A stretch of 64,000 nucleotides of DNA from Obrimoposthia wandeli. Its lineage: Eukaryota. How positions within the stretch are numbered: position 1 is the stretch's first letter; each line of letters starts with the position of its first letter. The notes under the pieces are model-generated. The model was given only the letters and a program-made list of their open reading frames with translations. It did no database searches and had not been told where the DNA came from. The stretch is from contig CDROCS010002077.1 in assembly GCA_977020255.1 (NCBI GenBank), positions 310,001-374,000 on the forward strand. Reading direction: 5' to 3'. Shown here in pieces: positions 20,000-59,876 of the stretch. The position numbers were made by a program, and so were the translations under genes.

Positions 20000-20115
20000 A
20001 GTAGGTGGATGTGTCCGGTCTAATCCACACCCCCCTCCCCCATTGTCCTTTAAAACCGTGTAGGTGTGTGGAGTGAAATTTCGTGTAGGTGTGTGGAGTG
20101 AAATTTCGTGTATGT
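20000..20115 (+). repeat. Left terminal inverted repeat of Polinton 1
   Basis: Reverse complement of 35788-35888. The left copy has a tandem duplication of gtgtaggtgtgtggagtgaaatttc. Confidence 0.95.
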
Positions 20116-20416
20116 GTGTCTCCATTCCACCCAAAGGGGGGAAGGAAGGGGTACCCCCCCATATTTGTTAAACTTTTCCCATGAATCTCAAAAGTGGTTA
20201 GAGAAGACCACGAGAATCCATATTGACCCCGACGGCTTTTCGCAGACGAGATTTCAAATATTACTACTATTTTTAAGAAAGATTTTAGATTAATAAATTA
20301 CTACATGTTAAATATCTATGTCAGTTTTAGAATTTAGAGGAGAAAAATCGGTCAGATCTATATAATTTAGAGGAGAAAAACAAAATACGAGACAAAATTA
20401 TTTTTCAAAATATTTA

Positions 20417-20881
20417 TTAAACATAAAACAACATATTGGCTTCACTCAAAGTCCAGAGAGGCTGCATTTTCCCGTCATCAGCAAAATATCCATTCTGACG
20501 TATTGAGATATTCCATAGTTCTTCATCTAGAATTGGAGCAATCAAATATCCTAGATCATCTTTAAAATCCAGACTGGGATCAGTTTCAAGCTCGAAACAA
20601 TTTCCTTCATATACATAATCAGGAATGTAAAATCCCAAAATATTTTTCAGTTGATCAAAATCAGATGTTGTTAAAATTTCGATGAGATATTTTTTCTCCA
20701 CTTTTGATATTTTCACAGGATTCATAACTCGTATAATTTGATGCCTCTTTAATATATTACATAGTTTTCCTTTTGAAATTCTTTCTGGATAATAAAAATT
20801 TTCTACACATCTCTTATCCATTCTAAAATAAGGAAACTGATTAAAAACAATGTTTATAAAAAAAATACACATAAGATACAA
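20417..20881 (-). CDS. Uncharacterised Polinton protein, family X paralog A (likely start 20821)
   Basis: Shares PV.ISK....Y......DF..L and F.DD.G....W.I.IR..GY......P.W....A with 20957-21433 and 60589-60970. Confidence 0.7.
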   Translation of the reverse strand: MYLMCIFFINIVFNQFPYFRMDKRCVENFYYPERISKGKLCNILKRHQIIRVMNPVKISKVEKKYLIEILTTSDFDQLKNILGFYIPDYVYEGNCFELETDPSLDFKDDLGYLIAPILDEELWNISIRQNGYFADDGKMQPLWTLSEANMLFYV

Positions 20882-20956
20882 ATAAGATACAAATAAAACT
20901 GATTATTAAATGAAAGAAACATAGTAAAACCGATAACAATTTATTACACACAAAAG

Positions 20957-21433
20957 TTAAAACATAGAAATATGAGCACGTTCAATTTTCCACATAGGCA
21001 ACTTTGTTCCCATTTCATCTTTCTTGTAACCATAAAGTCGAATTGTTACAGTCCATTGCTTCTTTTTCGGAAACGCATCAATATCAACATATCTTCCATA
21101 GTCATCTAGAAATGCTTCATCGGCTCCTCAGATATAAAATTCGTTCTTATTGAAAGTAAAATTTGGAACTGCCTTTTCTATTTTCTGTTTAAAATATTGA
21201 AAATCAGATTTTTGAATACCTGATAGATAGTAGCTGAACTTTCTTCTTTCAATTGTCACAGAATTTACTAAAGCAATCAGTTGAGCCTTCTTCAAGAATC
21301 TGACTTTGTATTTGAAATATTGTTTCACTTCTTCATACATATCCTTATCCGATTCTTCAAACATTTCTTCGTCATCGCTTAATACCCGTTGGCTATCATC
21401 CATTGTTGATAATTGTCTTTGATATGAATGCAT
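20957..21433 (-). pseudogene. Uncharacterised Polinton protein, family X paralog B (one in-frame TGA at 21128-21130)
   Basis: Reading through the TGA continues in frame as GADEAFLDDYGRYVDIDAFPKKKQWTVTIRLYGYKKDEMGTKLPMWKIERAHISMF*. Confidence 0.7.
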
Positions 21434-21644
21434 TTACTGTGATTTGTCCTCCAATGGCACATTATTTTATACTAATTTCTAACAAAGACATGAATCTCAT
21501 TGGTTAATATAACTAAAGCATTGAATTTGATTGGACTAAATCTATATTAAAAATCAAAATTGATTGGAAGAAATATATCATCCAATTATAATAGGTTTGC
21601 AAGATAATTACAAGAAACGTGCAATAAAAAAGCAGGTTCAGACA

Positions 21645-21679
21645 TATATAAAGAAGATTTTACAGAATACAATTTCAGT
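21645..21679 (+). promoter_or_regulatory. TATA box (TATATAAAG) plus TCAGT initiator of the TBP-like gene
   Basis: TATA at 21645, TCAGT at 21675 (30 nt downstream) and ATG at 21683. ATTGG/CCAAT boxes lie at 21500-21590. Confidence 0.6.
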
Positions 21680-21682
21680 CTA

Positions 21683-22212
21683 ATGAAACTCGTAAATATA
21701 AATTATAAAGGTAGAACAGAAGATGATGTTTCGTACTTACCATTCAATGAATGGAAGCCGAGACAATATGTAGAAAAGTTTGACAATTTCACAGTTGTTA
21801 TTTTTCCTACAGGTTAGTTTTTTATTTTATTTTTATATTGAATTCTTTAGGAAATTGTCGTGTTATGGGATGCAAAATACCAATGCTTGGGTTCAATTTA
21901 CCATTTGGAATTCAAATCACTGCAATACAATCAATCACGATTTCGGCTAATCTCGGGAAACAGATAAATCTTTTTAAAACTGCAGAGAAAATGAAAGAAG
22001 AATGCATGTTTGAACCAGAAATTTTTCCTGCTTTCAGTTATTTGAAGTTTAAACCGCTATGTGTAAATATATTTTCCAGTGGTAAAGTTATGATATTGGG
22101 ATTGAAAAATTTTGATTATCCAGACATAGTTGATTTGATTTTAGAAAATATATCTTATTACATCTTGTTATCTTTTTTCTATAAACAAACCCCGTTTAAA
22201 CTTATTGTTTAA
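21683..22212 (+). CDS. TATA-binding-protein-like protein; two exons, 21683-21812 and 21851-22212
   Basis: The spliced product MKLVNINYKG...TVVIFPTGNCRVMGCK...IQSITISANLGKQINL...FEPEIFPAFSYLKFKPLCVNIFSSGKVMILGLK matches both TBP core repeats (TALIFSSGKMVCTGAK; YEPELFPGLIY..P..LLIF.SGKVVLTGAK). A 38-nt GT-AG intron restores the frame. Confidence 0.85.
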
Positions 22213-22486
22213 AATGAATAATACTATAAATAGAGACAATGAAGTGGATCGGCTTGCCGATGAAATATTTTCTGGAAAAATTAGGGGTAAAGAAATTTTA
22301 TCAGAATTAAAAAATAATGATATAACAAGAGATAACATTGAAATATTGGTTAGATCACACGTTATTCGAGAATTTAAAAATCGTACACAAATAAATAAAA
22401 TTATAGCCAAATATTCATTAATTAATTTTTGTATTACATCTACAATAGCTCTAACATTGTACATTTCAATAAGGAAACTTCTATGA
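22205..22486 (+). CDS. Small hypothetical protein with a C-terminal hydrophobic helix
   Basis: 93-aa ORF between the TBP-like gene and the ATPase, with C-terminal YSLINFCITSTIALTLYISI. Confidence 0.5.
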   Translation: MFKMNNTINRDNEVDRLADEIFSGKIRGKEILSELKNNDITRDNIEILVRSHVIREFKNRTQINKIIAKYSLINFCITSTIALTLYISIRKLL

Positions 22487-22523
22487 TAATATAAACAATA
22501 TTAAAAATGAAAGAGTATATGCA

Positions 22524-23171
22524 ATGGAGCTAAATAATAATGCTGTATTTCAAATAGTTGGCCCAAGTGGAAGTGGAAAGACACATTTCGTCTGTAAATT
22601 GTTGCAAAATGAATCTCTTTTCAAATCTAGTTTCAAAAATATTTATTGGCATCATGGTGGAGGAGGGGAAAGCGGGTTAACCAAAACAGAAGTTTGCAAG
22701 TTGAAGGGTATAAAATTTATTGAAGGATTTGATGCAAATTGGTGTGAAAGATTGAAAAAAGAAGATGTAATAATAATTGATGATTTGTATGAGGAGGCTA
22801 ACAAGGAATCGAACTTTAATAATTTATTTACAAAGATTGCAAGACATCGTGAAGTTACAGTTATATTTATCACTCAAAATCTGTTTCACCAAGGAGGTCA
22901 CCATAGAACAAGAAATCTTAATGTACATTACTTAGTTTTATTTAAAAATCCTAGAGATCAAACAGTTGTTGATTTTGTGGCCAGACAGGCATTTCCTCAA
23001 AATAAGAACTTTCTAGTTGATTCATTCCACGATGCTGCTAAACAAGCACATGAGTATATATTTATTGACTTTACACAAGCTTGTCCAGATGATTTACGTG
23101 TTTTAACAGACATATTTAATTCTAAGGGAATAACTGTTTATAAACAAATAGAGAACAATTATAAAAAATAA
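22524..23171 (+). CDS. A32/FtsK-like genome packaging ATPase (intact)
   Basis: Walker A GPSGSGKT, Walker B VIIIDD, and ITQNLF...RTRNLNVHYLVLFKNPRD. Confidence 0.93.
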   Translation: MELNNNAVFQIVGPSGSGKTHFVCKLLQNESLFKSSFKNIYWHHGGGGESGLTKTEVCKLKGIKFIEGFDANWCERLKKEDVIIIDDLYEEANKESNFNNLFTKIARHREVTVIFITQNLFHQGGHHRTRNLNVHYLVLFKNPRDQTVVDFVARQAFPQNKNFLVDSFHDAAKQAHEYIFIDFTQACPDDLRVLTDIFNSKGITVYKQIENNYKK

Positions 23172-23338
23172 ATTTACAAAGTTGATAGTAAAACGTAAAG
23201 TAAAATCTAAGAAATCAAAAAAAAGAATCATTAAGAAAAAAGAAGTGAAAAAATTAATCAAATCTGTAGTTAAAAATAAAAAAAAACTTAAATGGCTTCG
23301 AATATAAACAATATTTAAATTGAACCTTTTTTATTAAA

Positions 23339-23667
23339 ATGAAGAAAATACAAAGAAGCATACCCTATTTTAAAGCTTTAGTCAAAGCCTCTTCTAATAA
23401 GAGAATGATTATTCTTAAAGCATTTCCATCCTTTGTTGTAGATGATTTATTGGAAGTTTTATATAATATAGTTTTGGGTCGAGTAAAAGTTGGAAATCGG
23501 AAAAATATATTAAAGAAATATAGAAAAACTCTTCTAGATATTGCTAATGTAAAAGTAAAAAAAGGAAACGAAATATTATTCTTAAACAGAATGGTGGTTT
23601 CATAGGGGCTGTTATTCCAGTTGTTGCTTCAATTATCAGTAGTATTATAGCTGCGACAGGTTCATAA
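23339..23667 (+). pseudogene. Conserved small Polinton virion protein with a C-terminal Q.GG|F hydrophobic tail (frameshifted)
   Basis: SIPYFKAL...VVDDL...L plus a shifted tail, QNGGFIGAVIPVVASIISSIIAATGS*. Homologous to 59446-59856. Confidence 0.7.
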
Positions 23668-23695
23668 ACAATTATTTGTAAAATCAGCTAAAGAT

Positions 23696-23914
23696 ATGGG
23701 TGCTAGCCCTTCTTTACCTAAACTGAAATTTTCTTTCTATTCAAATTGTTGTAATGGAGAAGATATTGTTCAATCCAAAAGATTTAATTGGCTACACAGG
23801 AGTTTCAAAATTAGCAAAAAGAACAAAACAAAATTACAAGAAAACGCAGAAATGGCTGAGCGACCAGTTAGCCTACAGTCTGAACAAGCCGATGAGAAGA
23901 AGGTTTCCAACTAG
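23696..23914 (+). CDS. Small basic ORF overprinted on the integrase 5' end (MGASPS...CCNG)
   Basis: A homologous ORF sits at the same position in element 2 (59205-59378). Confidence 0.6.
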   Translation: MGASPSLPKLKFSFYSNCCNGEDIVQSKRFNWLHRSFKISKKNKTKLQENAEMAERPVSLQSEQADEKKVSN

Positions 23915-24781
23915 AGCTTACAAAACCAGCGGTCCTAATAATTTATGGCAAATGGTTTTGATGGAGATGATCCCATATTCTTCCATTAATAAGGGATATC
24001 GATATATTTTAACATGTATTGATGTATTTAGCAGGTTTGCTTGTGCAATTCCAGTTAAAGCAAAGTCTTCAATAGCTATGCTTGAAGCCATTAAAGAAAT
24101 ATTAAAAGAGGACATTCCACAAAATGTGCAAAGTGATTTAGGAAAAGAATTTTATAATAAGCAATTTCAGTCATTATTTAAACAAAATAATATAAATCAT
24201 TACTCTGTGTTTTCACAATACAAAGCAGCAGTAGTAGAAAGATTTAATCGTACTCTAAGAGATCGAATAAAAAAGTATTTCACAAAAGAAGGAAATAAAA
24301 AATGGATCCAAGTTTTACCTAAAATAATACGCATATAATCACTCTGAACATAGAGGTCTCAAGGGAATGAGACCTGTTGATGTTACTAATAAAAACTCTA
24401 TTGACATTTGGATGAACAGGAATAAAAAAGATAAAAATTAAAAAAGCTAAATATAAGAAAAACGAATATGTTCGAATTTCGAAAATTAGCTCTACTCCAT
24501 TTATTAAAAACTTTGATCAGAATTGGAGCGATGAAATATTTTGTATAAGTAAAATTGATCAAAAGAGTAATCCAATAATGTATACTATTAAAGATGCTGA
24601 CAATAATATCGTTCACGGTAAATTTTACGAGCAAGAACTACAAGTAATATCAAATAACCCTAGCGTTTTCTGTATTCAAAAAATATTAAAATCTAAGGGT
24701 ACAGGTAAACATAAACAATACTTTGTTAAATGGCATGGTTATTCAGACCCAACTTGGATATCAGTATCTAATATAATATGA
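23754..24781 (+). pseudogene. Retroviral-like (DDE) integrase with C-terminal chromodomain
   Basis: WQMVLMEM (first catalytic D changed to V), LTCIDVFSRF, QSDLGKEF, VVERFNRTL and YFVKWHGYSDPTWI. Several frameshifts. Confidence 0.92.
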
Positions 24782-25839
24782 ATTCTATGTATATGGTTTT
24801 ACCAAGTAACGGATGTCCGAAGACTCAACCAGATAATGACGCTAGTAGCTTTATTATCGATTGGGAAAATTCTATAAATCTCCAAGGAGAATGGAAAGCG
24901 GCTTTAACAGAATTTTCTTTTTATTATTCTCCAATTACTATCAAAAAAAACTCACATATTTCGTTTACAAAAGAAGTTTATCATGAAAAAACAACTGAAG
25001 TTGTGATCGGGTTTGATAGTAAAGGACAATTCTATTACAATTGTATAGATAAAGAAGTGAAAGTAATATTTGAAAATAACAAAGTCAGATTTAAAAATCG
25101 ATTAAAATTTCTTCAAATTATTAAAATTAATTTTGAATCTAAAAAAGAAGCTCTTCAATTCAGTTTTGATAGTGAACAAACAGTAGCTCGTAATAAACGG
25201 GATATAGTCTCATCTAAATCGGTTAGAAATATTCCTGGTAGAGTAGCAAAAGTGTTGTTACTTGAAACGAGACCAAAGACTGTAGTGAAACTGAAAAGGT
25301 TTTCAAAAGATTATAAATTAGATAGTGAAGTGAATTTCTGTAAATTAATACAGAAGGAATGTAGTGAATATTTTGATAAATGTGTAACATTAAAAAATGG
25401 TAAAATAACGTTTACAGTAAAGAGCAATATAATACGAGTTTTATTTGATGATAAACTCGCTAAAAACCTTGGTTTAAACAGTAATACCTTTGAAACCCAT
25501 ACAATAAAAACCATAAAAGCTAAAAATAAGGCAAAACTTTTAAATGCTGTTAATCATTTATATATTTATACTAATTTAATAGAACCAACGCTTGTAGGAG
25601 GACAGCGAGTTCCACTTTTGAGAACAATATGGATATCTAAAAATGAAACTAGAGATGGGGACACTGTCGGTATGTGTATAGATCAACCAATGTATCTTCC
25701 AGTTTCTCTCTTTTCTATAAACAATATTGAAGTAAATATTAGAGATGATTCCGGACAACTAATAGATTTCACGTACGGGGCCAAGACAAGTTTAACAATA
25801 CATTTAAGAAAACAAAATGGCGAATCCAGCAATAATTGA
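24778..25839 (+). CDS. Minor capsid protein (penton, single jelly-roll)
   Basis: N-terminal LPSN...N.AS.F.I.W.....L.GEW..ALTEF; C-terminal LYIYTNLIEP..VG....PLLR...YLPV....I.VNIRD..G. Confidence 0.85.
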   Translation: MNSMYMVLPSNGCPKTQPDNDASSFIIDWENSINLQGEWKAALTEFSFYYSPITIKKNSHISFTKEVYHEKTTEVVIGFDSKGQFYYNCIDKEVKVIFENNKVRFKNRLKFLQIIKINFESKKEALQFSFDSEQTVARNKRDIVSSKSVRNIPGRVAKVLLLETRPKTVVKLKRFSKDYKLDSEVNFCKLIQKECSEYFDKCVTLKNGKITFTVKSNIIRVLFDDKLAKNLGLNSNTFETHTIKTIKAKNKAKLLNAVNHLYIYTNLIEPTLVGGQRVPLLRTIWISKNETRDGDTVGMCIDQPMYLPVSLFSINNIEVNIRDDSGQLIDFTYGAKTSLTIHLRKQNGESSNN

Positions 25840-26194
25840 AGCTTATAGTCAAAGCCAACAAGGTGGAGAATTACCATATTTTGTTGGTAAACAATACGGA
25901 TCTGGCTGGCTTAGAACATTAGGTAGATTTGCCTTTCCTCTTTTAAAGAGACTCGGGCGATTTATATCAAAATTAGGAAAGGATTACCTTTCATCTAATG
26001 ACAATAAACTAATACCAACTTTTAAGAAGCATGCGCTTGATGAACTTGATAATGTTTTACCTGAAGTTGCTAATTTGATTAGAAAACGTAAATCAAATAA
26101 AAGCCAAGGAGGTAGTGGATATAAAAGTAAAAATAAGCTAAAAATTAATATAAACAAACGTAAGAAAGTTGAAGGAACAATATTTGCAAAATGA
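25817..26194 (+). CDS. Conserved small Polinton core/membrane-active protein
   Basis: YSQSQQGGELPYFVGKQYGSGWLRTLGRFAFPLLKR lies between penton and MCP; homolog at 56845-57246. Confidence 0.75.
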   Translation: MANPAIIEAYSQSQQGGELPYFVGKQYGSGWLRTLGRFAFPLLKRLGRFISKLGKDYLSSNDNKLIPTFKKHALDELDNVLPEVANLIRKRKSNKSQGGSGYKSKNKLKININKRKKVEGTIFAK

Positions 26195-27274
26195 GTTGCG
26201 CCAAAACTGAATTATGTATTTTTGATAAACCGCTTCCACAAGTAGTTGTAGATAATGCTTCCTTTGAAGAAATATTCCTTGTTAACTCAGTTTCAGGAAC
26301 CACTTTAACCGATTTAGAATTTAATATTAATGGTTCCAATAGCGAGTATTTAGATTTGAATGATACTTTGCTTTATGTTCAAATAAAAGTATTAAATCGG
26401 GATGGTACTAATTTAGATGAAAATGCTGATGTAACACCTGTAAATTATCTATTTAATTCTTTATTTAATGATGCCATTGTTACTCTTAATAATGTCAAAA
26501 TTGAAGGTGGAAATTCTTCCTATACTCATAAAGCTTTGATTGAAAGTCTTTTGAATTATAGTACTGATACTCAAAATACTAATTTGGCAACCATTGGTTA
26601 TGATAAAACTGATGCAACTCGCAAAGAATGGATTGCAGGTTCTAAAGCTTACGAAATGTGTGGGTCTTTGAGATTGAATTTCTTTGAACAACCGAAATAT
26701 TTAATTCCCGGTGTTAATGTACATCTTCGTTTGAAACGTAATAAATGGAATTTTTCTTTGATAAGCACGGACATTCTAAAACCTAGACTTGATATTTTGG
26801 ATGCAAAATTGTATGTTCGAAGAGTTAAAACCGAGCAATCAGTTTTAATGGCACATAATATAGGAATGGAAAAAAACAATGCTTGTTATCCTATTAGAGA
26901 AACTAAACTTATATCTTATTCTTTAGGTACGCGTTCACAAGCTTTTAATAAGGATCAAATTTTTGGTGATGTAAGATTTCGAAGGTAACGCTTATGCTTT
27001 GGCTTATACCCAATCTATTATTCGAAATTTGGGTCAACTAGATAAAAATATAAACAATAGTATTTCTTTCACTGACTTTAAAAACAGCTGCCCGTTCTTC
27101 ACATTTGTTTTGGCACCAGACTTTGATATAAACCAATGCCAACTACCAAAGGATGGAAATTTACGACTAGAAATTAAGTTCAATGCAGCTTTAACAAATC
27201 CTACTACGGTGCTTATTTACGGAGTATTTGATTCGGAAATACAAATCAATAAAAACAGAACTGTCATATTATAG
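26191..27274 (+). pseudogene. Major capsid protein (double jelly-roll), broken by an internal deletion
   Basis: KTELCIFD.P.PQVV, DLEF.I......YLDLNDTLLY, LFNSLF, FFEQPKYLIPGV and GNLRLEIKF. Relative to the intact copy at 55634-56848 it lacks roughly 45 aa after FGDVR. Confidence 0.9.
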
Positions 27275-27275
27275 A

Positions 27276-27656
27276 ATGGAGTAAGACATATTTTAAATTT
27301 ATATTTATTAATTTTTATTTAGTTCAAAACAAGTAAAAGAATCAGCAGAGAAGGTCCTGGGTGATAAATTCAATGGAGTTTATCCTATTGATATGATTCC
27401 ATTTTTTCAATCTGGAGGTTACATTATCAATACTCATACTTCGAATTTACCAGGAGAACATTGGATAGTTATATATGTTAGAGAGTGGACAATACATGTA
27501 TTTGATCCACTTGCAATGTATTATCCACACAAACTTGTTTCAACTATTCAAAAAGGACGAAGAAGAGTATTTTACAACAAGATACAATATAAGGATCCTG
27601 CGACGAGAAACTGTGGACATTTATGTATTTTATGGTTATCGTTACAAAACGATTAG
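27276..27656 (+). CDS. Adenain-like cysteine maturation protease; exons 27276-27280 and 27323-27656
   Basis: Spliced product MDSKQVKESAEKVLGDKFNGVYPID...IINT....PGEHW...FDP...NCGHLC carries the His/Asp/Cys triad. The oxyanion Gln position appears to be K. The intron is 42 nt. Confidence 0.88.
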
Positions 27657-27931
27657 TGTGTTATAAAAATAAAAATTTTAAATGTTTTATTTTGAATTAT
27701 TTTTTAAATCTCTAAAAATTTAAGGGTAAAATAATAAAAGACATAAGACAATTTTTTTAATACATTTATTAATCACAACATCACAATGAGATATGTCAGC
27801 AAAGATAAGGCATAATAAATAAGGTCCATCCTAAAAAAAGTATTGAAATAACAAATAAGTTAGAGTCTAGGTGCCATAGGGATCTAAAATTTTAAAAAAC
27901 TAAAATAAAAAAATAAAAAAATGAAAACCGT

Positions 27932-30900
27932 TTAAATTCTGAAGTGTCCATAAGCCAGGCTAGCGTTCTTTTCTACCCAAAAGCGCTTGTCGTCATTACT
28001 ACTCAACGCGATTTTGGTTGATTTATGGGAATACAGTTGATGGGCTCTTGAAATAAATCTAGTTTGCTCAACGCTTTCAATACACCCAGTATCATAAACT
28101 TTCCGGTAGGCCTCATGTGTAAGATTGTTTCTTCCCACACCCTTTGCTCTCATTGAACATGTATTATTAGATGCATGTAAACTGTAGCATTTAGGGCGTA
28201 GGAAAATACAATCATCATACGAAACCTGTCCCTCGATTTCATCCTTAAATTTCCCGATAATGTCCTTTAAACTCATAGAGTGTAGAGGATGGTTAACGGG
28301 ATATTTATGGGTATTTAGTAAGTTGTCCCTAAACATTGCTGGTAATAATTGATTATTTAAACTAACATTCCTACATTCTAAAAAGAAAGAGTCAGTGTCC
28401 CCAGCTGCGATTTTAATCTCACAATTAAATTCTTGTCGGTATTTCTCCAATTCTATGTATTGAAGCTCATACATTCTGAGTTTAGAAATGTCTAAAACCG
28501 TTTGACCTATATAACTCGGTCGATCGAGAAAAATACTCTGTTTTCCTAATAACACTGCTACCAAGTCATCTGCAATTGTAAAACTACGCTTGAAGTTGTA
28601 CTTGCTAGTATATGTTATTAGTTTACGCTCATCATTGCAAAACGTAGACAAATACGTTTCCGCAAGTCCTCTACAGTTTTTCCAAAGAGACTATTACTTT
28701 TTAACTTGTAAAAATCTCGATCGAATTTGCTAGTGGCCAAATTACGTTTTCTTGAATTCTTCTCAATATAGTCTTTAAACACAAAGTTTTGACTGAATCT
28801 TATAGCACGATGAATTCGAGTAACTTTCGCTCCCAACTTTAAGTAGAATTGAAGAAGCCGCCAATGCACAACATAATTCAACTTGTCTTCATGGGTTAAC
28901 AATAATTTCTTAACCTTTGAATTAGGTGGGCATTGATGAACAGGCGCTACTGGAAGATCATCTAATTTATCATGCACATTGGGAGGGATTTTTATGTACA
29001 CCTCAACCAAATAGCCGACGTCGGATGAAACTGTATCAACAGTAGCCAAATCTGTCATCAACTTATTCAACTGATCCACATCATAAACCTACTTAAAGTT
29101 GGCATGAGGTAGAGGTTGAGTAAGCGCCCACCCATACAAATTATTAATATCGATGTACAGAATCTCCGTGGATTGATTTTTGACAACATGATGTTTGTTG
29201 ACAAAAGTCATTCCACCGCGTATACCATAATCATACATTTGATACATCGCGGGATCTTGCAGTAACTTGATATTAATTTTAAGTGTTTTTAATGCTGTTA
29301 CCCATGAAAGACCAGGTAAACTAAAGAAATGCATGGGATCTAGCCCATCTTCTGCTAAAGACTTTACACGAAAGGACTCAAAAACATCAGCTAAAAGATA
29401 AATGTCTAACTTCATATAATAAAGCATATATTCTAAAAGATTTTGACAATTATTCACCCAAAATGTACGGGCCTCATTATAGTCTTGAAGACTTACACCC
29501 TCAAATTCAGTTATGGGTGGGATTTCAGTAGTATTTTCTAAATCTGCAAAGGTTTTCGCAAATTTATACGGAAAAATCCCCGTATCGTTAACCGAAGCTG
29601 GAAACACTGACTGTGTGATTGGCCATGCATTTAAAGATGCCGTTAAATGTTTTTTTAAAGACCCGCTAAAAACTGCAGAGAATCGATGAATCTTAAACTG
29701 CAGAATTCAGTATATGCAGTTAAAGATAAATATTTCTCTGAAGTTTGAGGTATACATGAAATTTCCCAAGAGCTTAATGTACCCAACACGTATTTAAGTA
29801 TATGATGCAAATCATATCCTTTGAGGTTATGAAACACGATGGGAATGCGTGGTTTTTTAGGGAGACGACGGCCAAGGTTACAAAGGTTGCACGCCGCTCC
29901 CAAGTATCGCCCCGTAACATGATCGTGATCTCTGACTAACTTAGACTGGGTTCCACACAAATAACATAATCTACAAGAATTAAAATTAACCCAGTCTATG
30001 CCTGTCATGATCATTGCTTGATGAGCATTGAGATCATACCACGGTTTGACAATTGTTGTTCCTAATTCCTCTAATTTTAACATAAAATCTAAAATACAAT
30101 TTGGATCGGAAAATTTATGATACTGGGTAATATTGGGGCCTAAGAATAGTAGTCCTGCCGAAGCCGGTAGGTGAATACTCTCATACTGGTCGTGCAATGC
30201 TAAAATTGACTCAAAATCTGCATACACCCTGAATTCCACGGGTATGCATTTTGCCCAATCCCTGAATTTTAAATCCTTATCCTTAGGCATGCTATATAGC
30301 GTATTGTCATCAGGATTTAGTGAGCATAATGTCAGATGTTTGCTGTAAGAGAGCTCGGATCGGAACCCATGCAAACATCTATGACACCACTTACACCTTA
30401 TCCTAACCGGTAAGGCTCCATTATCTAAATTTAAAAGACGATCTAAACTGGGAATTGCAGCATAATGGAATATATTATTATGTTCAAGCAAAATTAAGTT
30501 GACCTGAGTCCCTTCATTTTTGCTCCTATAAATTACATCTACAAAAGGATTTTTAAAAATTTCTTCATCTGTTACATTAACTGGGATATCAGTATTATAT
30601 TTGAATACATTAATACTCAAGTTATTAAGATGTTCAAATCTTGATATCGCAGTTAATTTAACAGGAAAATCTATTCCATGATACTGCAATTCATTTAAAA
30701 AAGGGGTATATTTACTGACACGCTCTCTATGCTCAGTAATTACATCCCTTTTGAGGATGGCCAACACGCTATACAGAAAGCAAAGGTTATCAATGTTTTG
30801 TACGTTAACAATGGAACGTGAAAGTTGAAGAGATCTAGGTGAAGGAATATATGAACTCCCCGAAAGATATATCATGTCAGTGAACTTTGTTAGAACAAAG

Positions 30901-31184
30901 CTAACATCGTGAATTTTAACTAGAGTCCATCCACTACTTAACTCGCTATAATTAGCAATTTTTTCATCAAGGTTTCTTCCAATTTCAGTTACAAAATTAT
31001 CATAAAAAACAGTTGCTTTATGTGAAAATACCCAAGTTTTAGTTTCCTCATTGACATTTTTAAACTGCACTGTTGCGCAAAATTGAACTTTAGCCTGTCC
31101 TAATTTAGTCACTTCTGATTTTAAAAGATTTTCAATATTTGAATCTACACCTACGTTTAATAAAATTTCATTTCCTAATGGCAC
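27932..31184 (-). pseudogene. Protein-primed family B DNA polymerase (pPolB) body, frameshifted into four or more pieces
   Basis: SGW..SGSSYIP, NIDNLCFLYSVL...HYAAI (vOTU-like), VYADFES, CYLC..DHDHVTGRY.GAAC..CNL (endonuclease VII-like), FHNLKGYD, IDSLQF, YIDINNLYG, KLKSNSLFGK, GDTDS, KCY and KGV. Confidence 0.95.
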
Positions 31185-31243
31185 CTTAACTATAACATAT
31201 TTATTATATAGGTGATACTCTATAGTAGCACCGTTTTCTCTAC

Positions 31244-32397
31244 CTTATTAAGAAATTGGCCTTGCCTCTTTCTTCCGTTTGTCGCTGACAAACCTCCCCC
31301 TAATTGAACGGGAAGACAACTATTTATATTAATAGTTGAGACAATCGCAGCTGAGGTTGAAGGTGCTGCTATTGGACATGCTGCCGATGTTGAGGCAATT
31401 GCAGCTGATGTGGAAGCTGCTGCTATTGTTGATGCTGCCGATGTTGAGGCAACTGTAGCTGATGTTGAAGGGACTGCTGACCTTTCCGATGAAGAAGCGG
31501 CTGTTGTAGAGGTTAGTGCTGCTGAAATATATTAAAAAATAAATATATTTTTAAAAATTATTACCTCTAAGACGTGCTAACATCGATGTAGGCACTCGCG
31601 ATGGTGGAGACATATCTGTTGTAGCAGATGACGATTGTAGAACGGTATTTCCTGATTAAATAATATAAATAAAATATATATATTAAAAATAAAATATATA
31701 ATTACAATTTACAAAAATAAAAAAATACCTAATGAAGGCAATCCAAGTTGAGCTGGAACGAAGTCCTCTTCATTGATGGAATCCATCCAGCTGTCGTCCG
31801 TTGACTCGATGAAATCGGATTCCTCGATGGTCTCCATACATGAGTTATCGCTCCACTGAGGCTGCTCCATCTCGAAATCTGACTGGGTGATATTTCGCAT
31901 CCAGTCATTGTTTGAGAATTGGGTTGCTGGTGCCAACTCCTCAAAATCTTCCTCGGAGATGTCATTCATCCACTCATTGTTAGACATTTGAGTGGATGGG
32001 GCAGCAGCAGAATCAGGAGCCGGGAGAGAAGGACCAATGGCAGGACCATAAACTGGTAGACTGACAGCCACTGTAAATGGAGGTGGAGCTCGAGCGGCCT
32101 GCGAATCGCGCACCAATTGGACGATATCCCTCTTCTTGTTGTTGGCCGTGAAACACGATAGGTGAGCTCGATGTTCACAGAAGAATTCTCGAAACTCCTT
32201 CTCCTCCATTGTTCTGCAGAAGGGGCAGACGAAGAACAGAACACCTTGAGACTTGGTCCGGTAGTATGCAGACATTGTCTCCATGCCGGACTCTCCTCCA
32301 TGCGGAGCCGAAGCACCGCAATACGCAGGGAATAGGTTACACGTAATCTGAAATAATAAATATTAATAAGGAAATAATAAAAATAAATTCTTACCAT
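31244..32397 (-). CDS. Spliced 5' extension of the pPolB gene; exons 32397-32395, 32347-31729, 31651-31565 and 31521 to about 31244
   Basis: Three GT-AG introns give one open frame. Its N-terminus aligns with the N-terminus of the intronless pPolB of element 2. Joining to the 31184 ORF needs a fourth intron or a frameshift. Confidence 0.7.
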
Positions 32398-32479
32398 AGG
32401 CATTATTTCAAATTGTCGGGGATTTAAATGAAGAAAGTGTTTGCTTATATACTAAAATTTATGCACGCATGCTCTTTTC

Positions 32480-32750
32480 CTATTGGATTAAAAAATTGAA
32501 TTTATTCCTCCACTGAGAAGGATTGTTTATCTGTTATTGGATGAAAAAATAATTTTATTCCTCCAATTAAAGAGAAGGATTGTTTATCTGTTATTGGATG
32601 AAAAAATAATTTTATTCCTCCAATTAAAGAGAAGGATTATTCATATATTATAGGTTGAAAAAATTTTTATTCCTCCAATCAAAAGGCTTATTTGTAAATA
32701 AATGTAAAATTTTAATAATGAATTCCTCCAATTAGAAGAATTGTTTATCT
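32480..32750. repeat. About five tandem 57-bp repeats with CCAAT/ATTGG boxes upstream of the spliced pPolB start
   Basis: The unit ttattcctccaattaaagagaaggattgtttatctgttattggatgaaaaaataatt recurs at 32502, 32555, 32612, 32667 and about 32720. Confidence 0.85.
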
Positions 32751-33254
32751 ACATGTCAAGTAATAATAAGAAAGACTTAAACATTTTTTATATGCGCAAT
32801 GGTCACCATGATTACGATATGGACAGCAAATATTTTGTGGAATATTTAATAGATGGTCACGTGAAATATTTAAAGTATTCAACCTCAATTTAGGAAAATA
32901 TTTTTTTAAAGTCTTATATCTTTTGCCATCCATGTCATCTAAAACATAAAAAATTCCATTTTCAATTTCAAAATTAGATTTAATAGTATCGAAAATACAT
33001 ATTTCACAAAAAGCCTTATGTCCTTCTTTCCATTTTAATAAATGGAAATATTTAGTTAGAGATAAATTAGTAAATTTTTTCTTATAATCTAAACTTTTAA
33101 ATGATATATCTATATGAAATATGAAATGCAAAGGATGAAAAACGTCGCATACATCCATAATACATAATTCTTTTATAATATAATCCCCATTTTTGTTAAT
33201 GAAAGCCTCAAAATCTATGATATATTCCTGCATAATTACCCAAATTTGTAGCAA
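32745..33254 (-). CDS. DEDD/DnaQ-like nuclease-fold protein (likely start 33233)
   Basis: IIDFEAF...YIIKELCI resembles ExoI (D-x-E); C-terminal CCPYRNHGDHCAYKKC. Homolog at 54754-55206. Confidence 0.6.
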   Translation of the reverse strand: MLQIWVIMQEYIIDFEAFINKNGDYIIKELCIMDVCDVFHPLHFIFHIDISFKSLDYKKKFTNLSLTKYFHLLKWKEGHKAFCEICIFDTIKSNFEIENGIFYVLDDMDGKRYKTLKKYFPKLRLNTLNISRDHLLNIPQNICCPYRNHGDHCAYKKCLSLSYYYLTCR

Positions 33255-33367
33255 ATCCCGTTGTTTATAACGAAAAACAATTAATCAAAAATTTATTAAA
33301 ATGACGAGGTAGTATTTAGACAATTTTATAACATAATCAATAAAGACAAAATAATAATCTATAAAAT

Positions 33368-33688
33368 TTATTTTTTTGTGGAAGGACCCTCTTCCGGTTT
33401 AATCTGGAGGATTCGCTTTCTTTCTGCTCGCCGAACATCCTCCGTCTCTTCTCTTCTTTTTTCCTCCGCCTTCCTTTTTTCCATTTCGATTTTCTTGTTC
33501 CACTCCACAACCCGACGTCGTTCTGCTAGCCGCCTGTCCTGAATCTCCACCCGACGATTCCACTCGGTCGCGACAGCAGTATATAAATTCTGGTTGAGGA
33601 TCCTCTTTCGTAAATCTCCTTTCTTCTCATTTAATCTTATATTTGCCTCGATCTTCGTCACCAAACTTTGCATTTTAATAAATTCCAT
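33368..33688 (-). CDS. Hypothetical charged coiled-coil protein
   Basis: 106-aa E/R/K-rich ORF with TATA-like and CCAATCA elements upstream (33720-33880). Confidence 0.55.
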   Translation of the reverse strand: MEFIKMQSLVTKIEANIRLNEKKGDLRKRILNQNLYTAVATEWNRRVEIQDRRLAERRRVVEWNKKIEMEKRKAEEKRREETEDVRRAERKRILQIKPEEGPSTKK

Positions 33689-33896
33689 TTTTTAATTATG
33701 AAGATGTTAATAAATTTGAACCTATATATATAAATTATATGTATATAAATTAAATATATTTTTAATCCAATCACAAGCAATTAAATCCCATTTATCAAAT
33801 GGAAGTTTAATAAATATATAACTAATCATTGCATTTATATTTAATCCTAAAAAATTTAATTATTCCTTAACAATCCAATCACATTCGAATAAGTTA

Positions 33897-34085
33897 ACTT
33901 TATTTTAATAAACTTACGGAGGATATTTTTAATATTACTAAATTCTAAAATTTATTTTTAACCTTGTTATTTTAATAAACTTAAGGAGGATATTTTAATA
34001 TTAAATTCTAAAATTTATTTTTAACCTTGTTATTTTAAAAAACTTAAGTAGTATATTTTAATATTACTAAATTCTAAAATAAATA
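33897..34085. repeat. Three tandem AT-rich repeats of about 62-67 bp
   Basis: The unit ttattttaataaactta..gaggatatttt.aatatt..taaattctaaaatttatttttaaccttg is repeated three times. Confidence 0.8.
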
Positions 34086-34109
34086 ATAATAAAAAGACAA
34101 CACAAGAAA

Positions 34110-35700
34110 CTAATGTTTATAAATTATATTTTTGAAAATCCTTACGAAGTCTTCATTGGGATCATCCGGGTCGTATTCCCTCCGACTTATTTTGATAGGA
34201 GAAAGCGGTACTGGTTCCTTCGTCTTTGGCCGGCCCGGTTTCTTTTTCGGCTTCACCGGTTGCTGTACAGCAATTGTCCTTCCCTCAGGTTTTGGCAATA
34301 GTTGCCGCAACTTTTTGGGAGGAGGTGCAGCCGATGTTGATGGCCTCGACATAGAAGCAGTAACCTTCCTCTTCCGCGGAGCTTTCTTCTGTTTCTCCTC
34401 TTTCTCACGCTGAAGCTGGCGTGAGACGGCATCCTGTTGCTCACGCTAATCTGGAAGCATTGCGGGTGTATCCAGTTCCGCCAGGAATTCATCCAAACCA
34501 AATAATTTACCTCGATGACTGGCAGATTAGCCTGTTTCACCAACTTGGCCTTCTTCCGATGGACCGTATTGGTTTTGATTCGATGACGTCGAGGTTTCTT
34601 AACTGCTGCTTGCTTCCTATCGACAGGTAGTCTCCGAGATGCCTCCTCCCAAATTTCCTCCACCAACTCAGCTTCCTAAGTGAATAATTAAATAAATTTA
34701 CTAATTTATAATGATATACCTCAATTTTAGCCGGAGTCGGTAGGTATCTCTGATCACTCCTGGGATCATCCTGGCTACATTGACTCGCCAAGTATTGCAG
34801 TTCAATTAGCCTCTCAATCGTGGTTACTGACGGTGCCAAATCCAGTTGCAGTTTCTGAAAATAAAATTAAAAATCATTTTAAATAAATGATTTCTAACCT
34901 CATTCGTCGCCTTTATTCTCCTATCGGAGATTGTGGCCTTCTGAATGGATCAGGCACTGTAATGTTGGGTATTGGAGTCGGAGTTGTATAGGGAGTGAGA
35001 CCATCCCATTCGTCAGTGAACAGATCCCACTCATCTTCATCCATTTCTGCAACCATGGACTCGTTGGCTCCTGGGGCTCCGATACTTGGCTGTATCCACT
35101 CCTCCTCCCCATCCGACGGAACGTCATCAGTAAAAAGCTCCTCGTCTGAGTCTGGTGTCAGTATTATCTCCGGTTGCCCACGCGAATCTGGAAGCATTGG
35201 GGGTGTATCCAGTTCCGCCAGGAATTCATCCAAACCAGCGTCATCCCAGGCCCTCTTCAAGTTTTGGCTGGTTGTTGGACGAGGAGAAGCAGTCTCCTGC
35301 AGGCGTTGTTGACTCGAGTGCGGACTTATCTCGATCGGCGAGACTGGGATCCTCTCATATAAAATAGGCCCGTCGTCCATTGGAGGAGGGAGAATCTCCT
35401 GCTGGCCAATCACCGCCTCAGAATAATGGCCAATTGAGGTTCGAATTTTTCTCGCGCGCCTCGTCTTCTTCACCTCTGCCCGCTTTGTCCTTTTCTTATG
35501 GAAAGGAGTAACTTCTCCTCAAGTCTCCTCAATTATCCGGACAGGTCCTGCAAATGAAAACAAAAATAAAATTTAAAATAAAATTTTATTTAAATAAAAA
35601 AAGCCTGTATTTATTACTCGTTGATCCACCGCGGGCCCGTAGGGCACGCTTTGGCCAATTTTTTGGCCTCTCAGGACCTTAATCAAAATTTTGGGAGCAT
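34110..35700 (-). pseudogene. Multi-exon gene for a low-complexity acidic/basic protein at the right end of Polinton 1
   Basis: GC-rich coding-like blocks are separated by 44-nt GT-AG introns (34898-34855 and 34719-34676; the exons flanking the latter are in frame). A few stops and frameshifts; the start is uncertain. Confidence 0.55.
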
Positions 35701-35787
35701 TATGAGATTTTTAAATTTACAGGGTGTTAAATGGAGTTAATTTTTTTTTTTGAGTGTTTGGGATGGGGAAGGGTAGAAAACGTTTCT

Positions 35788-35888
35788 ACACACTTACACG
35801 AAATTTCACTCCACACACATGCTCGGTTTTAAAGGACTGTAGGGGGGGGAGGGGGGTGTGTGGATTAGACCGGACACATCCACCTACT
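35788..35888 (-). repeat. Right terminal inverted repeat of Polinton 1
   Basis: Ends ...GATTAGACCGGACACATCCACCTACT, the reverse complement of the left end. Confidence 0.95.
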
Positions 35889-53619: not shown

Positions 53620-53689
53620 AGTAGGTAGAAGGATGGAGTCTAGATCACTTGACCCCCCCCTTGTGCGCACACAATGTTAAAGGATTTTT

Positions 53690-54640
53690 CAACATAAGGG
53701 TGTCACACCATAAGGATGCCTTGCCACACCATAAGGGTATATGTTGCCTCATTATAGAAATGTCACACCACGAAGGTATATGTTGACTCACCATAAGGGT
53801 GTCTTGCCACACCATAAGGGTCTGGCTCAGAAAGGTTAAGATGGGGGGGAGGTGGGAAGGGTCAATTGATTTAGTCTCCACCCTTCTTTGATATACCACT
53901 ATAAGGTTGTGGTCGTCCATAATTTCAAGGGTCAAGGTCAGTTTTGACTTGAAGGTTTTAAGGTATGGTCATGACCGTCTATGGTCAACCAACATATCTA
54001 AAGAGTTGTGGTCGTCCATAGGTCAAAGGGTTAAGGTCAGTTTTGACTTGAAACTTTGAAGGTATAATTAAGTTCAACTATGGTTGGTCATCACATCTAA
54101 AGGGTTGTGGTCGTCCATAGGTCAAAGGGTCGGACTAAAAATAAAAAATTTAAATATCAAGGTTTTAGTACATGGTTGGAATCATCTTTTGAAGGTGAAT
54201 TCACCCATAAAGTATGGTCGTCCATAAATAAAGGGTCGAGCTAAAGACCAAATCAAGTTTTAAATGTCAAAGTTTGAATACATGGTTGTAATCATCTTTA
54301 GAAGACGAATTCATCCATATAGGTATGGTTGTCCATAGATGAAGGGTTAAAAAAAATTAGAATTTCATAGTTTCAAGTACATGGTTGTATTCGTCAACAT
54401 ATTACGAGTTTAATCATGTAAAAATTTTATGGTCGTTCACAAGGTAAGGGTTAGATTTGGCATAAATTAAGAAATTATATAGTATTCAATCAATTATTCT
54501 ATGTGAAAGTTCACTCTTAAAAGTTAAGGAATGTATTACGTAATCACACACACACTATTCTATGTGAAAATTTAGTCTAAAGTTCACTCTTATCAGTTAA
54601 GGAATGTGGTTTTTAACACACATACTATTCTATGTGAAAA
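53690..54640. repeat. Layered subterminal repeats of Polinton 2
   Basis: CACCATAAGG units (53693-53821), six GGT(C/T)GT(C/T)CA(T/C)A-anchored units of about 100-110 bp, and CTATTCTATGTGAAA-type x3. Confidence 0.85.
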
Positions 54641-54753
54641 TTTAGATCAATGTTTTTTTCCACGCTTACACATCTAAAGAATTATGTTAAAATTTCATTA
54701 AATAACTTAAATTATATATTAAAATAAAAATAAAATATCATTAATAAATATAT

Positions 54754-55206
54754 TTATATACAATTTACATAATCAATACATAGAGAAAAACATTTTAAAT
54801 AAGCACAATGTTTTCCGTGTTTTCTAAACGGACATCGAATATTTTTTGGCATTTTCTTTAAATTTTTGAAACTTTTATTATAATTCACAATTCTCAAATT
54901 TGGAAACATTCGTTTCACTAAATTAATTTTCTTTCCATCAATAGAATCCATAACATAGAATATTGTTTCAACATCATCAATATGAATATCAGAGCTTTCA
55001 CCTTCAAACCAGGATAACTGATGATGATGATTTATCAAATATAGATTTTTTCTTTTAACTGTAAATGATAAACTACTCCATGGTATTTGATTTTTAAACA
55101 CGTAATGAAATGGAAAAGTCATATCATTCACATACATTATACATAATTCCTTTGGAATATATTCTCCATTATTATCAATAAAACATTCTAAATCAATAAA
55201 AGCCAT
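54754..55206 (-). CDS. DEDD/DnaQ-like nuclease-fold protein
   Basis: AFIDLECF...YIPKELCI...HHQLSWFEG...CPFRKHGKHCAYLKC; homolog of 32745-33254. Confidence 0.6.
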   Translation of the reverse strand: MAFIDLECFIDNNGEYIPKELCIMYVNDMTFPFHYVFKNQIPWSSLSFTVKRKNLYLINHHHQLSWFEGESSDIHIDDVETIFYVMDSIDGKKINLVKRMFPNLRIVNYNKSFKNLKKMPKNIRCPFRKHGKHCAYLKCFSLCIDYVNCI

Positions 55207-55258
55207 TTGAAAAAAATAAAATAAAATACTATAATGTTATATTTGTTTATACTTAAAA

Positions 55259-55635
55259 TTATTTGTGTTGAAGTTTCAACCATAAAAGACTCAGAGGTCC
55301 ACAGTTTTTAGTTAATGGATTCTGACATTTAACTCGATTATAGTAGACTGGAATGTTTTCTTTTTCAAGTGTAGACACCAACTTTGAAGGATAATAGAAT
55401 CCAAAAGGATCAAACACTCGAATCTCGAATCTGTCAACGAATATTGCTATCCAATGTTCGCCTGGTAGATTTGAAGTATGAGTATTGATAATGTAGCCTC
55501 CGGGTTTTAATGATGGAATTTTATCCAATGAATATACTCCATTAAATTTGTTGTTCAATAATATTTTTCCGGATTTATAAATTTCTAAAGTACTAATTTA
55601 AATAAAGAATATAATATACAATAAGCTTACTTCTT
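55259..55635 (-). pseudogene. Adenain-like protease; 38-nt intron at 55630-55593; start codon apparently mutated
   Basis: TLEIYKSGKILLNNKFNGVYSLD...INT....PGEHW...FDP...CQNPLTKNCG. Confidence 0.85.
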
Positions 55636-56848
55636 ACTTTTTTTTTTTTTTCGTAATCTGAATTTCGGAATCAAATATTCCGTAAATCAAAACACTTGTT
55701 GGAACAATCAAAGGAGAATTAAATCTAATTTCAAGTCTTAAATTACCAGTTTTAGGCACTTGAGTAGTGTTTATATCAAAATCTAGTGCTAATAGAAAAG
55801 TGAAAATCGAACTTCCTGATTTAAAATCAGAAAATCTGATACCATTATTCAAGTTTTTATCTAAAATATTCATATTTCGAATAATTGACTGCATATATGC
55901 TAATGAAAAATTGTTATTATCTAGATTATAAGTTTCTCGATAATCTGTATTTCTAGCTAATGATATTGTTGAAACATTAAATGTATTGAACGTAGAAGAT
56001 TTAACTTTGTATTCCTTACCACCTTGAGGTGTATCTTTGAAAGCAATCAAAATGAACTTGGGTAAACGATAGTCTCCGAATATTTGATCTTTATTAAGTT
56101 CCAAAGAACCCTGAGGAATTGAATATGTTACTAACTGAGTTTTTCTAATTGGGTAAACTGCATTCTGACTTTGCAAACCTAACTGATGACCAATCATTAC
56201 TGAAGAATCAACTTTTACTCTTCTAACATACAATCTAGCATCTAGAATTTGAATAATTGGTTTTGAAGTTTCTGAATAGAGCAAAAAATTATGCTGATTT
56301 CTCATAAATCTCAAATGAACATTAATCCCTGTAATCAAATATTTTGGTTGATCAAAGAAATCTAATCTAATTGAATTACACAATGAAAATATTTTAGATT
56401 CACTAATCCATTGTTTACGACTTTCTGCATCATCATCATACCCGGAACATTCAAGGTTAGTATACTTGGTATCACTACTAAAATTCAAAAGAGTATCGAA
56501 TATAGCCTTATGAGTATACGTTCCATTTCCTCCTTCAACCTTTACATTATTAAGTGTTAGAATAACATCTCTAAACAAAGTTTGAAACATGTAATTCTCT
56601 GGAGTTACATCGTTATCTTTTATTAAATCAGTACCATCTTCATTTACAACTTTTAATTTAATATTTAACAAAGTATCATTCAAATCCGGATAATCTTCTT
56701 CAGATGCATGAATATTAAATTCTATGTCATTTAAATTTCCACCAGTAATTGAATTGATTGGAAATATTTCTTCAAAACTTGAATTTTCAATCACTACTTG
56801 AGGTAGTGGTCTATCGAAAATACACAATTCAGATTTTATACTAGTCAT
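55634..56848 (-). CDS. Major capsid protein (double jelly-roll), essentially intact
   Basis: 404-aa ORF: KSELCIFDRPLPQVV...FFDQPKYLITG...GNLRLEIRF. Confidence 0.92.
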   Translation of the reverse strand: MTSIKSELCIFDRPLPQVVIENSSFEEIFPINSITGGNLNDIEFNIHASEEDYPDLNDTLLNIKLKVVNEDGTDLIKDNDVTPENYMFQTLFRDVILTLNNVKVEGGNGTYTHKAIFDTLLNFSSDTKYTNLECSGYDDDAESRKQWISESKIFSLCNSIRLDFFDQPKYLITGINVHLRFMRNQHNFLLYSETSKPIIQILDARLYVRRVKVDSSVMIGHQLGLQSQNAVYPIRKTQLVTYSIPQGSLELNKDQIFGDYRLPKFILIAFKDTPQGGKEYKVKSSTFNTFNVSTISLARNTDYRETYNLDNNNFSLAYMQSIIRNMNILDKNLNNGIRFSDFKSGSSIFTFLLALDFDINTTQVPKTGNLRLEIRFNSPLIVPTSVLIYGIFDSEIQITKKKKK

Positions 56849-57246: not shown

Positions 57247-57283
57247 TTTTTATATTTTTATATTTTAAATATATTTATATTGT

Positions 57284-59317: not shown

Positions 59318-59378
59318 TGCAGCATGAAGAATTAAAATTTATAAATAAGTTAGACAACTTTGTATTGTTTATCCCCAT
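59205..59378 (-). CDS. Small basic ORF overprinted on the integrase 5' end (MGINNT...CCNG)
   Basis: Homologous in sequence and position to 23696-23914. Confidence 0.6.
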   Translation of the reverse strand: MGINNTKLSNLFINFNSSCCNGKDLKQSRRSRRVYRVRKIDKKSQTIKSKHTKMVKK

Positions 59379-59856: not shown

Positions 59857-59876
59857 TTTATTTTAAAACTTTATTA

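Follow-up and report, generated by a model that had tools for sequence, protein, structure and literature searches.

Each of two Polintons in a 64,000-nucleotide window of the Obrimoposthia wandeli genome (contig CDROCS010002077.1, positions 310,001 to 374,000 of the forward strand; the window is the whole stretch that we analysed) encodes a protein of roughly 150 residues that is, according to structure prediction, a two-lobed protein with the fold of TATA-binding protein (TBP), here called mini-TBP. Its DNA-reading face is altered at conserved positions, and a promoter-like word, YATAAACR, lies upstream of virion and packaging genes in the elements that carry it. This placement of YATAAACR before Polinton virion and packaging genes is new here, and mini-TBP is apparently an uncharacterised viral TBP variant with a matching promoter word. 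We consider it probable that mini-TBP binds YATAAACR, recruits host TFIIB and RNA polymerase II (Pol II), and is the element's late-gene switch.

Copy 2 (60986..61450, minus strand) is intact and intronless, with a stop-free translation of 154 amino acids, in which residues 67–139 alone matched the Pfam TBP profile (PF00352, E = 2.4e-11; 43.7 bits, cut-off 22.9). Copy 1, on the plus strand, consists of exon 1 (21683..21812), encoding N-lobe strands, and exon 2 (21851..22212), encoding the end of the N-lobe and the complete C-lobe with its FEPEIF stirrup; its spliced length of 163 amino acids was obtained by arithmetic, the exons having been translated separately. Exon 2 matched PF00352 (E = 2.6e-11), and exon 1 was recognised by the family profile with a probability of 98.5. 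At the level of Pfam only the C-terminal repeat passed, the N-lobe going undetected. An AlphaFold2 model of copy 2, built on 79 relatives, had a pLDDT of 97 and the two-lobed TBP saddle fold: its residues 1–150 aligned to residues 66–238 of yeast TBP (VIA Z 13.1, rmsd 2.6, 147 residues aligned), the first 38 VIA rows all contained TBP (Z 11.4–13.4) and the next fell to Z 7.0, and Foldseek returned a best E of 3e-9 and 44 matches with E < 0.001, with TBP-containing chains in the rows shown. Because the superposition covers the whole length, it establishes the N-lobe that Pfam missed, which in the model comprises four strands and no helices, H1 and H2 both being gone. Atlas features placed mini-TBP among TBP clusters, mostly with an archaeal label, at a recognition below the reliable level; PHROGs returned nothing for the six element proteins searched; and a co-fold that paired mini-TBP with the core of a TFIIB sharing 88% identity with the host exon, run without alignments or DNA, scored 0.02 (mark 0.34), which we count neither for nor against an interaction. 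A sequence-only reading of the window had proposed that two elements each carry a TBP-like protein with a well-kept second repeat and a first repeat that retained GCK and seemed to have lost its stirrup Phe and most of helix H2. The fold, the FEPEIF, FDPEVF, IF.SGKV and GCK signatures and both losses were borne out; that reading had overlooked that H1 is missing as well from the copy 2 model.

The exons of copy 1 are separated by a 38-nt GT..AG intron (21813..21850, plus strand) in phase 1, at the Gly codon before N-lobe strand 5, which carries an in-frame stop and breaks the reading frame. When 30 copies of the element-1 gene from the genome were compared, 29 had kept the GT..AG ends, at intron lengths of 36 to 40 nt, and among the 29 other copies length changes affected nine within the 38-nt intron, as against three within the 130 nt of exon 1 and two within the 299 nt of exon 2. 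In a metagenome element (L099) the codon and phase are shared, but the intron is 40 nt long and unrelated in sequence, and two more subfamilies in the host genome have an intron at the identical site. Judging from these patterns, the copy 1 gene is likely spliced, and splicing would imply nuclear transcription by Pol II.

Using yeast TBP numbering and an alignment of 79 family members, we found acidic residues at both the E186 and E188 equivalents (human E284/E286) in 76 members, Phe at the F116, F190 and F207 equivalents in 78, Pro at the P191 equivalent in 70 and Asn at the N69 equivalent in 71, with the K120 and K211 equivalents also kept. This stirrup supplies half (four of eight) of the residues through which TBP touches TFIIB (PMC10005294). 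Only three of the four intercalating Phe residues are present: the F99 equivalent, placed by analogy with the C-lobe F-P, is absent: in all 75 members scored, the residue preceding the N-lobe Pro is something other than Phe, and in 50 of those 75 it is Lys, Pro or Arg; an aromatic residue four positions earlier is kept in 63 of 79. The central Asn pair (N69/N159) is likewise incomplete, since the N159 equivalent is Ser or Thr in every member. This is one of eight altered DNA-facing positions, seven of them now polar or charged, the others being V122 to Arg (78 of 79), T124 to Met (79), L205 to Asn (78), V161 to Thr or Ser (78), V203 to Cys (61, assuming a one-residue gap after the preceding Pro), V71 to Asn (60) and I194 to Arg (59). 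The sequence-only reading had passed over this alteration of the DNA-reading face, which includes the three specificity positions I194, V203 and L205 of the yeast TBPm3 mutant (PMC1636458). Regarding the N-lobe helices, no H2 helix appears in the copy 2 model, and the G-to-Q span has a median of 22 residues versus 33 in yeast. The loss is graded across the family, with near-normal length for the H1 region in 20 of 76 members and for H2 in 6 of 79; one member (P0116) has a duplicated C-lobe segment, and P0122 and others have long extensions. The basic N-lobe helix is contacted by TFIIA, TAF1, Mot1 and Brf, and H2 carries three of the four basic patch residues for these factors, according to a survey of viral TBPs (PMC7221094). 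From these sequence features we infer that mini-TBP could recruit TFIIB while escaping TFIIA and TFIID.

Both genes sit within Polintons. Element 1 (20000..35888) has terminal inverted repeats (TIRs) at both ends and a 6-bp target-site duplication with one mismatch (19994–19999 and 35889–35894). Element 2 (~53620..64000) runs ~2.3 kb past the window end, its TIR pair being seen with the neighbouring stretch; its TIR is ~1 kb long with internal 99-nt repeats (53620–54703), versus ~120 nt in element 1. Each has genes for a protein-primed DNA polymerase B (pPolB), an integrase, an ATPase and a double jelly-roll (DJR) capsid protein, several of them broken. The core set was identified by matches to PF03175, PF00665 and PF04665 and, for the DJR capsid, by atlas features (0.97); an adenain-like protease was found as a PF00770 match in a related locus that clusters with a window ORF. 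Pieces of a host rhodopsin-family GPCR gene lie at 19556–19885 and 43609–43911 (plus strand), and between them are both element 1 and a 544-aa ORF (39633–41267), which we take to be transposase-like. A 30-nt repeat array of ~50 or more copies occupies 13400–15500, and another element-1-family copy, with a 236-nt tandem duplication at its ATPase start, begins ~3.5 kb after the end of element 2 (L159:5834–10000).

In element 1, a canonical-type TATA box, TATATAAAG (21645..21653, plus strand), lies 38 nt before the start of copy 1 and is a candidate host-read early promoter. ATAAACA motifs on the same strand follow at 22181..22187 (inside the 3′ end of the mini-TBP frame, 33 nt before an ORF at 22214–22486), at 22491..22497 (33 nt before the A32-like packaging ATPase, 22524..23171; PF04665, E = 6.4e-07), at 23304..23310 (35 nt before a basic ORF at 23339) and at 23664..23670 (upstream of both a small ORF at 23696, by 32 nt, and the retroviral-type integrase, 23754..24781, by 90 nt; the integrase is in pieces). 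Further motifs stand at 24711, 67 nt upstream of a gene without a library match (24778..25839, plus strand) that from its position we take to encode the minor capsid protein, and at 26150, 41 nt upstream of the broken 5′ part of the major capsid gene (26191..26988, plus strand). On the minus strand are the pPolB gene, in pieces (27932..30875), and a conserved element gene with a DxE motif and no library match (32745..33233), presumably DEDD-nuclease-like, with a YATAAACR-type motif at 33262–33268. In element 2 the minus strand carries the DJR major capsid gene (55634..56848; motif at 56877–56883, 35 nt upstream), an ATAAACA motif upstream of a broken ATPase (60549..60555) and a canonical-type TATA box, TATATAAAT (61477..61485), 35 nt before the start of copy 2; the pPolB gene (61547..64000, plus strand) is in pieces.

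The divergent neighbour of copy 1 (21128..21433, minus strand), shorter in this copy than in its relatives, represents the usual mini-TBP neighbour, a predicted T7 gp2.5-like single-stranded DNA-binding protein (SSB; pLDDT 92) also found at L072:1788–2135 and 19 other loci, with VIA Z of 8.0–8.4 to Enc34 SSB, DUF2815 and T7 gp2.5. In a look for a partner gene shared among carriers, the commonest neighbour was this SSB and not a transcription factor. The SSB gene is seemingly spliced in many loci, its upstream exon ending at GT. Between SSB and mini-TBP (21530–21600), CCAAT-type words occur on both strands, with no enrichment over shuffles across loci.

To define the promoter word we examined, for clustered genes of the two window elements and 51 loci, the 90 nt that precede each start, dropping nine ORFs with internal starts and collapsing regions more than 80% alike. 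YATAAACR, discovered and counted on these same related loci, was present in the 90-nt upstream regions of 50 of the 60 virion and packaging genes, compared with a mean of 2.9 and a maximum of 9 in 200 shuffles. It preceded ATPase starts in 15 of 15 cases, major capsid starts in 8 of 8 and minor capsid starts in 8 of 9, and it also stood before DEDD-like genes (7 of 8) and integrase genes (7 of 12). The last two gene types explain why our initial 'early' group scored above chance (17 of 101, versus 3.3 by shuffles); they were reassigned from it after the motif result was seen; 'late' here denotes gene type, not timing. The motif was found before none of 34 mini-TBP starts, none of six SSB first exons and none of nine pPolB starts, the pPolB figure being weak because these are mostly fragment starts. 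The core, ATAAAC(A/G), had a T or a C immediately in front of it at 74 of 80 sites. The motif lay 30–45 nt before the ATG at 47 of 68 sites, a preference whose p value is overstated by the relatedness of the loci, and its sense:antisense ratios were 10:1 and 12:1 in the late blocks of the window versus 8:9 and 6:5 in host flanks. Before the ATPase it was kept in 23 of 26 element-1 copies, and at sites that coincide with the YKQ codons of the ATPase it reads TATAAACAA in 13 of 13 loci. No initiator motif was evident downstream of it. The motif is not a canonical TATA box, a point missed by the sequence-only reading; C occupied TATA position 7 at 51 sites in 72 late regions versus two sites in 56 early regions. 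Ordinary TATA boxes preceded 12 of 34 mini-TBP genes, including both window copies (shuffle mean 2.8, maximum 9), and were not above dinucleotide shuffles in the broad early group (26 of 101; mean 15.7, maximum 28).

The same genome holds a distant Polinton family with a DJR capsid, an A32 ATPase and an integrase (L171, L175–L180; G000 C1961, C725, C2441 and C5437). Seven 20-kb regions of this family gave no mini-TBP match, and the motif preceded 0 of 14 and 0 of 13 ORFs in two copies. When six of the regions were extended to 30 kb, one strong mini-TBP match appeared, from an adjacent element-1 copy in which the motif stood before 4 of 4 ORFs. With the ends of the distant family not located, this correlation between gene and motif amounts to one independent contrast. 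In the distant family the integrase includes a domain like phospholipase A2 (PF08398), and instead of the motif, T-rich sequence lies upstream of many of the family's genes.

The mechanism that we favour would begin with the host machinery transcribing mini-TBP early, at an ordinary TATA box, followed in some lineages by splicing; replication genes would likewise be transcribed by host TBP in this phase. Once made, mini-TBP would, by virtue of its altered and more polar DNA face, prefer YATAAACR over the host TATA box, and its kept acidic stirrup would dock host TFIIB, which we propose as the partner because our search of the elements turned up no TFIIB gene. Without its N-lobe helices, mini-TBP would be free from control by TFIIA, TAF1 and Mot1, and mini-TBP seated on YATAAACR would bring host TFIIB and Pol II to the virion, packaging and integrase genes. 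The predicted fold, the pattern of conservation, purifying selection, the Polinton context and the position and strand bias of the motif come directly from the comparisons reported here; binding, specificity, use of TFIIB, escape from TFIIA, TAF1 and Mot1, and timing are what we would expect from them. Against this mechanism, the absent fourth Phe could weaken DNA binding by mini-TBP, TATAAAC might be near enough to a TATA box for host TBP, and ATAAACA also fits what we take to be the Forkhead consensus. The sequence-only reading had offered two roles, driving the element's own promoters or inhibiting host transcription; the positioned, strand-biased motif lends the former circumstantial support, and the latter found little.

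The last two objections lead to the strongest alternative, which we nevertheless regard as unlikely: that the motif is a real promoter read by a host factor (TBP, a paralogue or a Forkhead protein) and mini-TBP is a general helper, for example an unregulated supply of TBP for every promoter of the element, that of mini-TBP included. The word YATAAACR looks much like a TATA box, several TBP paralogues exist in the host, an A follows the core in 63 of 80 sites in Forkhead-like fashion, and mini-TBP genes have kept ordinary TATA boxes of their own at the frequency given above. On the other hand, the motif is strand-biased and positioned, the C at TATA position 7 marks late regions almost exclusively, and a Polinton family in the same host does without the motif. 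A Forkhead protein in particular would have to be reconciled with GTAAACA, which we take to be its usual form, being absent before all 15 ATPase and all 8 capsid starts, and with 15 of 80 sites ending in G. A host factor would also leave the near-invariant changes on the DNA face of mini-TBP unexplained.

With a eukaryotic TFIIB profile that found the host positive control, no TFIIB gene was matched in the two window elements, 51 metagenome loci or 21 stretches of the O. wandeli genome, a result to be read with most loci being partial and with room for a very divergent TFIIB to escape. Host TFIIB itself was closest to flatworm proteins among the named matches. The general factors of the host are expanded: we counted no fewer than five TBP-like loci, of which two share a contig in head-to-head orientation and two lack introns, together with several loci resembling Brf/TFIIB (L061–L065; L151–L158).

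Mini-TBP resembles a viral late-promoter TBP and lacks several defining traits of canonical, herpesvirus and giant-virus TBPs. With cellular and archaeal TBPs (PF00352; 1ytb, 1cdw, 1c9b) it shares the two-lobed saddle, the complete C-lobe and the kept stirrup, Phe, Pro, Asn and Lys equivalents listed above; it differs in its length of ~150 residues, in the absence from these copies of H1, H2 and the F99 equivalent, in its 22–24% identity and in the eight DNA-facing positions. The herpesvirus TBP mimics (KSHV ORF24, EBV BcRF1, HCMV UL87) likewise are viral TBP-fold proteins whose surface towards DNA is polar, a reported signature of the KSHV late-promoter mimic, and are tied to a non-canonical late-promoter word, TATTWAA (PMC12529657). 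ORF24 has polar residues at the V122, T124, V161 and L205 positions (PMC12529657, Table 1), but it is a 752-residue protein that keeps four Phe residues, is without the acidic stirrup, makes direct contact with Pol II and depends on five further viral proteins (PMC12529657), whereas mini-TBP is one small domain of 154–163 residues with its stirrup kept, outside the definition of such vTBPs and only weakly matched in structure to BcRF1 (E = 1.4e-3). Giant-virus (Nucleocytoviricota) TBPs also place the fold in a double-stranded DNA virus (best E = 2.6e-7), and the eukaryotic N-lobe signature is not conserved in them (PMC7221094); they mostly pair with a TFIIB of their own and have variable stirrups, unlike mini-TBP with its host-like stirrup and no TFIIB found, so that its carriers do not amount to a viral orthogonal TBP–TFIIB pair, and in a quick tree mini-TBP falls in a different clade. 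TBPm3 is changed at the same three positions as mini-TBP, but it is a laboratory mutant with F/T/V that accepts TGTA (PMC1636458), where the mini-TBP family has R/C/N.

A second alternative, which we judge improbable, is that mini-TBP reads the motif and starts transcription through another partner, an unrecognised element protein or a route that bypasses TFIIB, as the herpesvirus mimics do. Several small conserved element ORFs are without an assigned function, and most viral TBPs studied seem not to use host TFIIB (PMC7221094). Yet none of those ORFs is common to all mini-TBP carriers, mini-TBP has no extra domain, and the acidic pair kept in all but three members contrasts with ~40% at the first stirrup position in viral TBPs (PMC7221094).

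More doubtful still is a decoy or dominant inhibitor that sequesters host TFIIB or occupies host promoters and so damps host transcription. Retention of the TFIIB-facing stirrup alongside loss of one Phe and the regulatory helix would suit such a protein, but it would need neither near-invariant new DNA-face residues nor a matching motif in the element. TFIIB, moreover, binds TBP on bent DNA, and the genome apparently tolerates at least 150 near-identical, intact-looking copies.

Those copies, matching copy 2 at 95–100% identity in the 1.35-Gb genome, are the 150 scored of 41,129 first-look candidates; four contain stop codons, under a ranking that favours intact copies. Copy 1 had at least 40 matches at 96–100% identity (40 scored of 357). 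A Polinton core gene lay within 5 kb of 20 of 20 further TBP matches picked from the 150 listed, a figure to be read against the high density of Polintons in this genome. More broadly, 391 representatives (50% clustering) matched at E < 0.001, the weaker ones including ordinary TBPs, and 82 at E < 1e-10. We then took 80 of 244 loci and 5 more, 85 in all, from viral and metagenome sequence; 51 had a short-type mini-TBP, accompanied by a Polinton core gene in 19 and by some element gene in 43; in the 18 short-type loci of at least 3 kb these numbers were 12 and 17, and none of the 34 ordinary TBP loci had either. The mini-TBP scan of the viral collection gave five loci, all with ordinary or giant-virus-type TBPs, and scans of that collection for control Polintons (ATPase, capsid and ATPase alignment) gave no usable locus. 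Family carriers are rearranged elements that span 27–47% GC.

Between lineages, dN/dS had a median of 0.24 and a range of 0.05–0.54 (44 pairs with dS of 0.03–1.5 among 43 coding sequences), the top value including an intron-containing frame read straight through. Among copies of the element-1 gene the ratio was ~0.31 for shared variants and ~0.76 for private ones (21 synonymous, 66 non-synonymous, 3 stop variants), as expected if selection acts during replication and lapses after insertion. In a quickly built tree with 115 rows, for which motif-classed members were thinned to every second one and all others were used, the short proteins formed one clade (SH-aLRT 95, stem 0.69) apart from three host paralogue stretches, and the nesting among host TBP genes that capture of a TRF or TBPL would leave was not seen; two long-branch viral-contig rows adjoined the clade with unsure placement. 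The mini-TBP family is under purifying selection, linked to Polintons and not a recent capture, in agreement with the suggestion of the sequence-only reading that it is a stable, selected part of this lineage. That mini-TBP is a neutral passenger or a recently captured host TBP is largely refuted by dN/dS and the tree and, with the gene kept across rearranged elements and near-neutral private variants expected after insertion, has next to no chance of being right, for all that the private variants and stops of element 1 recall it.

Among the papers listed for Polintons, Mavericks or adintoviruses together with TBP, TFIIB or promoters, none dealt with this family or its motif, subscription journals and Repbase being outside the scope of the search, and the main text of the viral TBP survey by Ravarani et al. 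(2020) has no Polintons, Mavericks or adintoviruses (PMC7221094). Starrett et al. (2021) use the label 'TBP' in the legend to their Fig. 5 for a gene of a virus or element with an adintovirus-like PolB; it is a legend entry alone, in a section on non-animal datasets, and may or may not refer to the mini-TBP family (PMC8502044).

The broadest proposal, which we advance tentatively and with somewhat less conviction than the late-gene switch itself, is that a large clade of animal Polintons may run an early/late programme on a single TBP of ~150 residues that has shed its helices, is tuned to YATAAACR and borrows host TFIIB, a natural orthogonal TBP–promoter pair independent of the herpesvirus and giant-virus solutions. 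To our knowledge, how Polintons/Mavericks activate capsid expression, and whether those of animals follow a timed viral cycle, are open questions, and one small protein with a short DNA word makes the control of Polinton capsid genes testable. If our reading is true, a TBP can work with three Phe residues and without N-lobe helices, and nature has produced an altered-specificity TBP at positions that yeast genetics had already identified. With recent copies running to hundreds in the genome of one animal, the host carries many potential copies of the factor, and mini-TBP would be the switch that decides when endogenous elements make virions.
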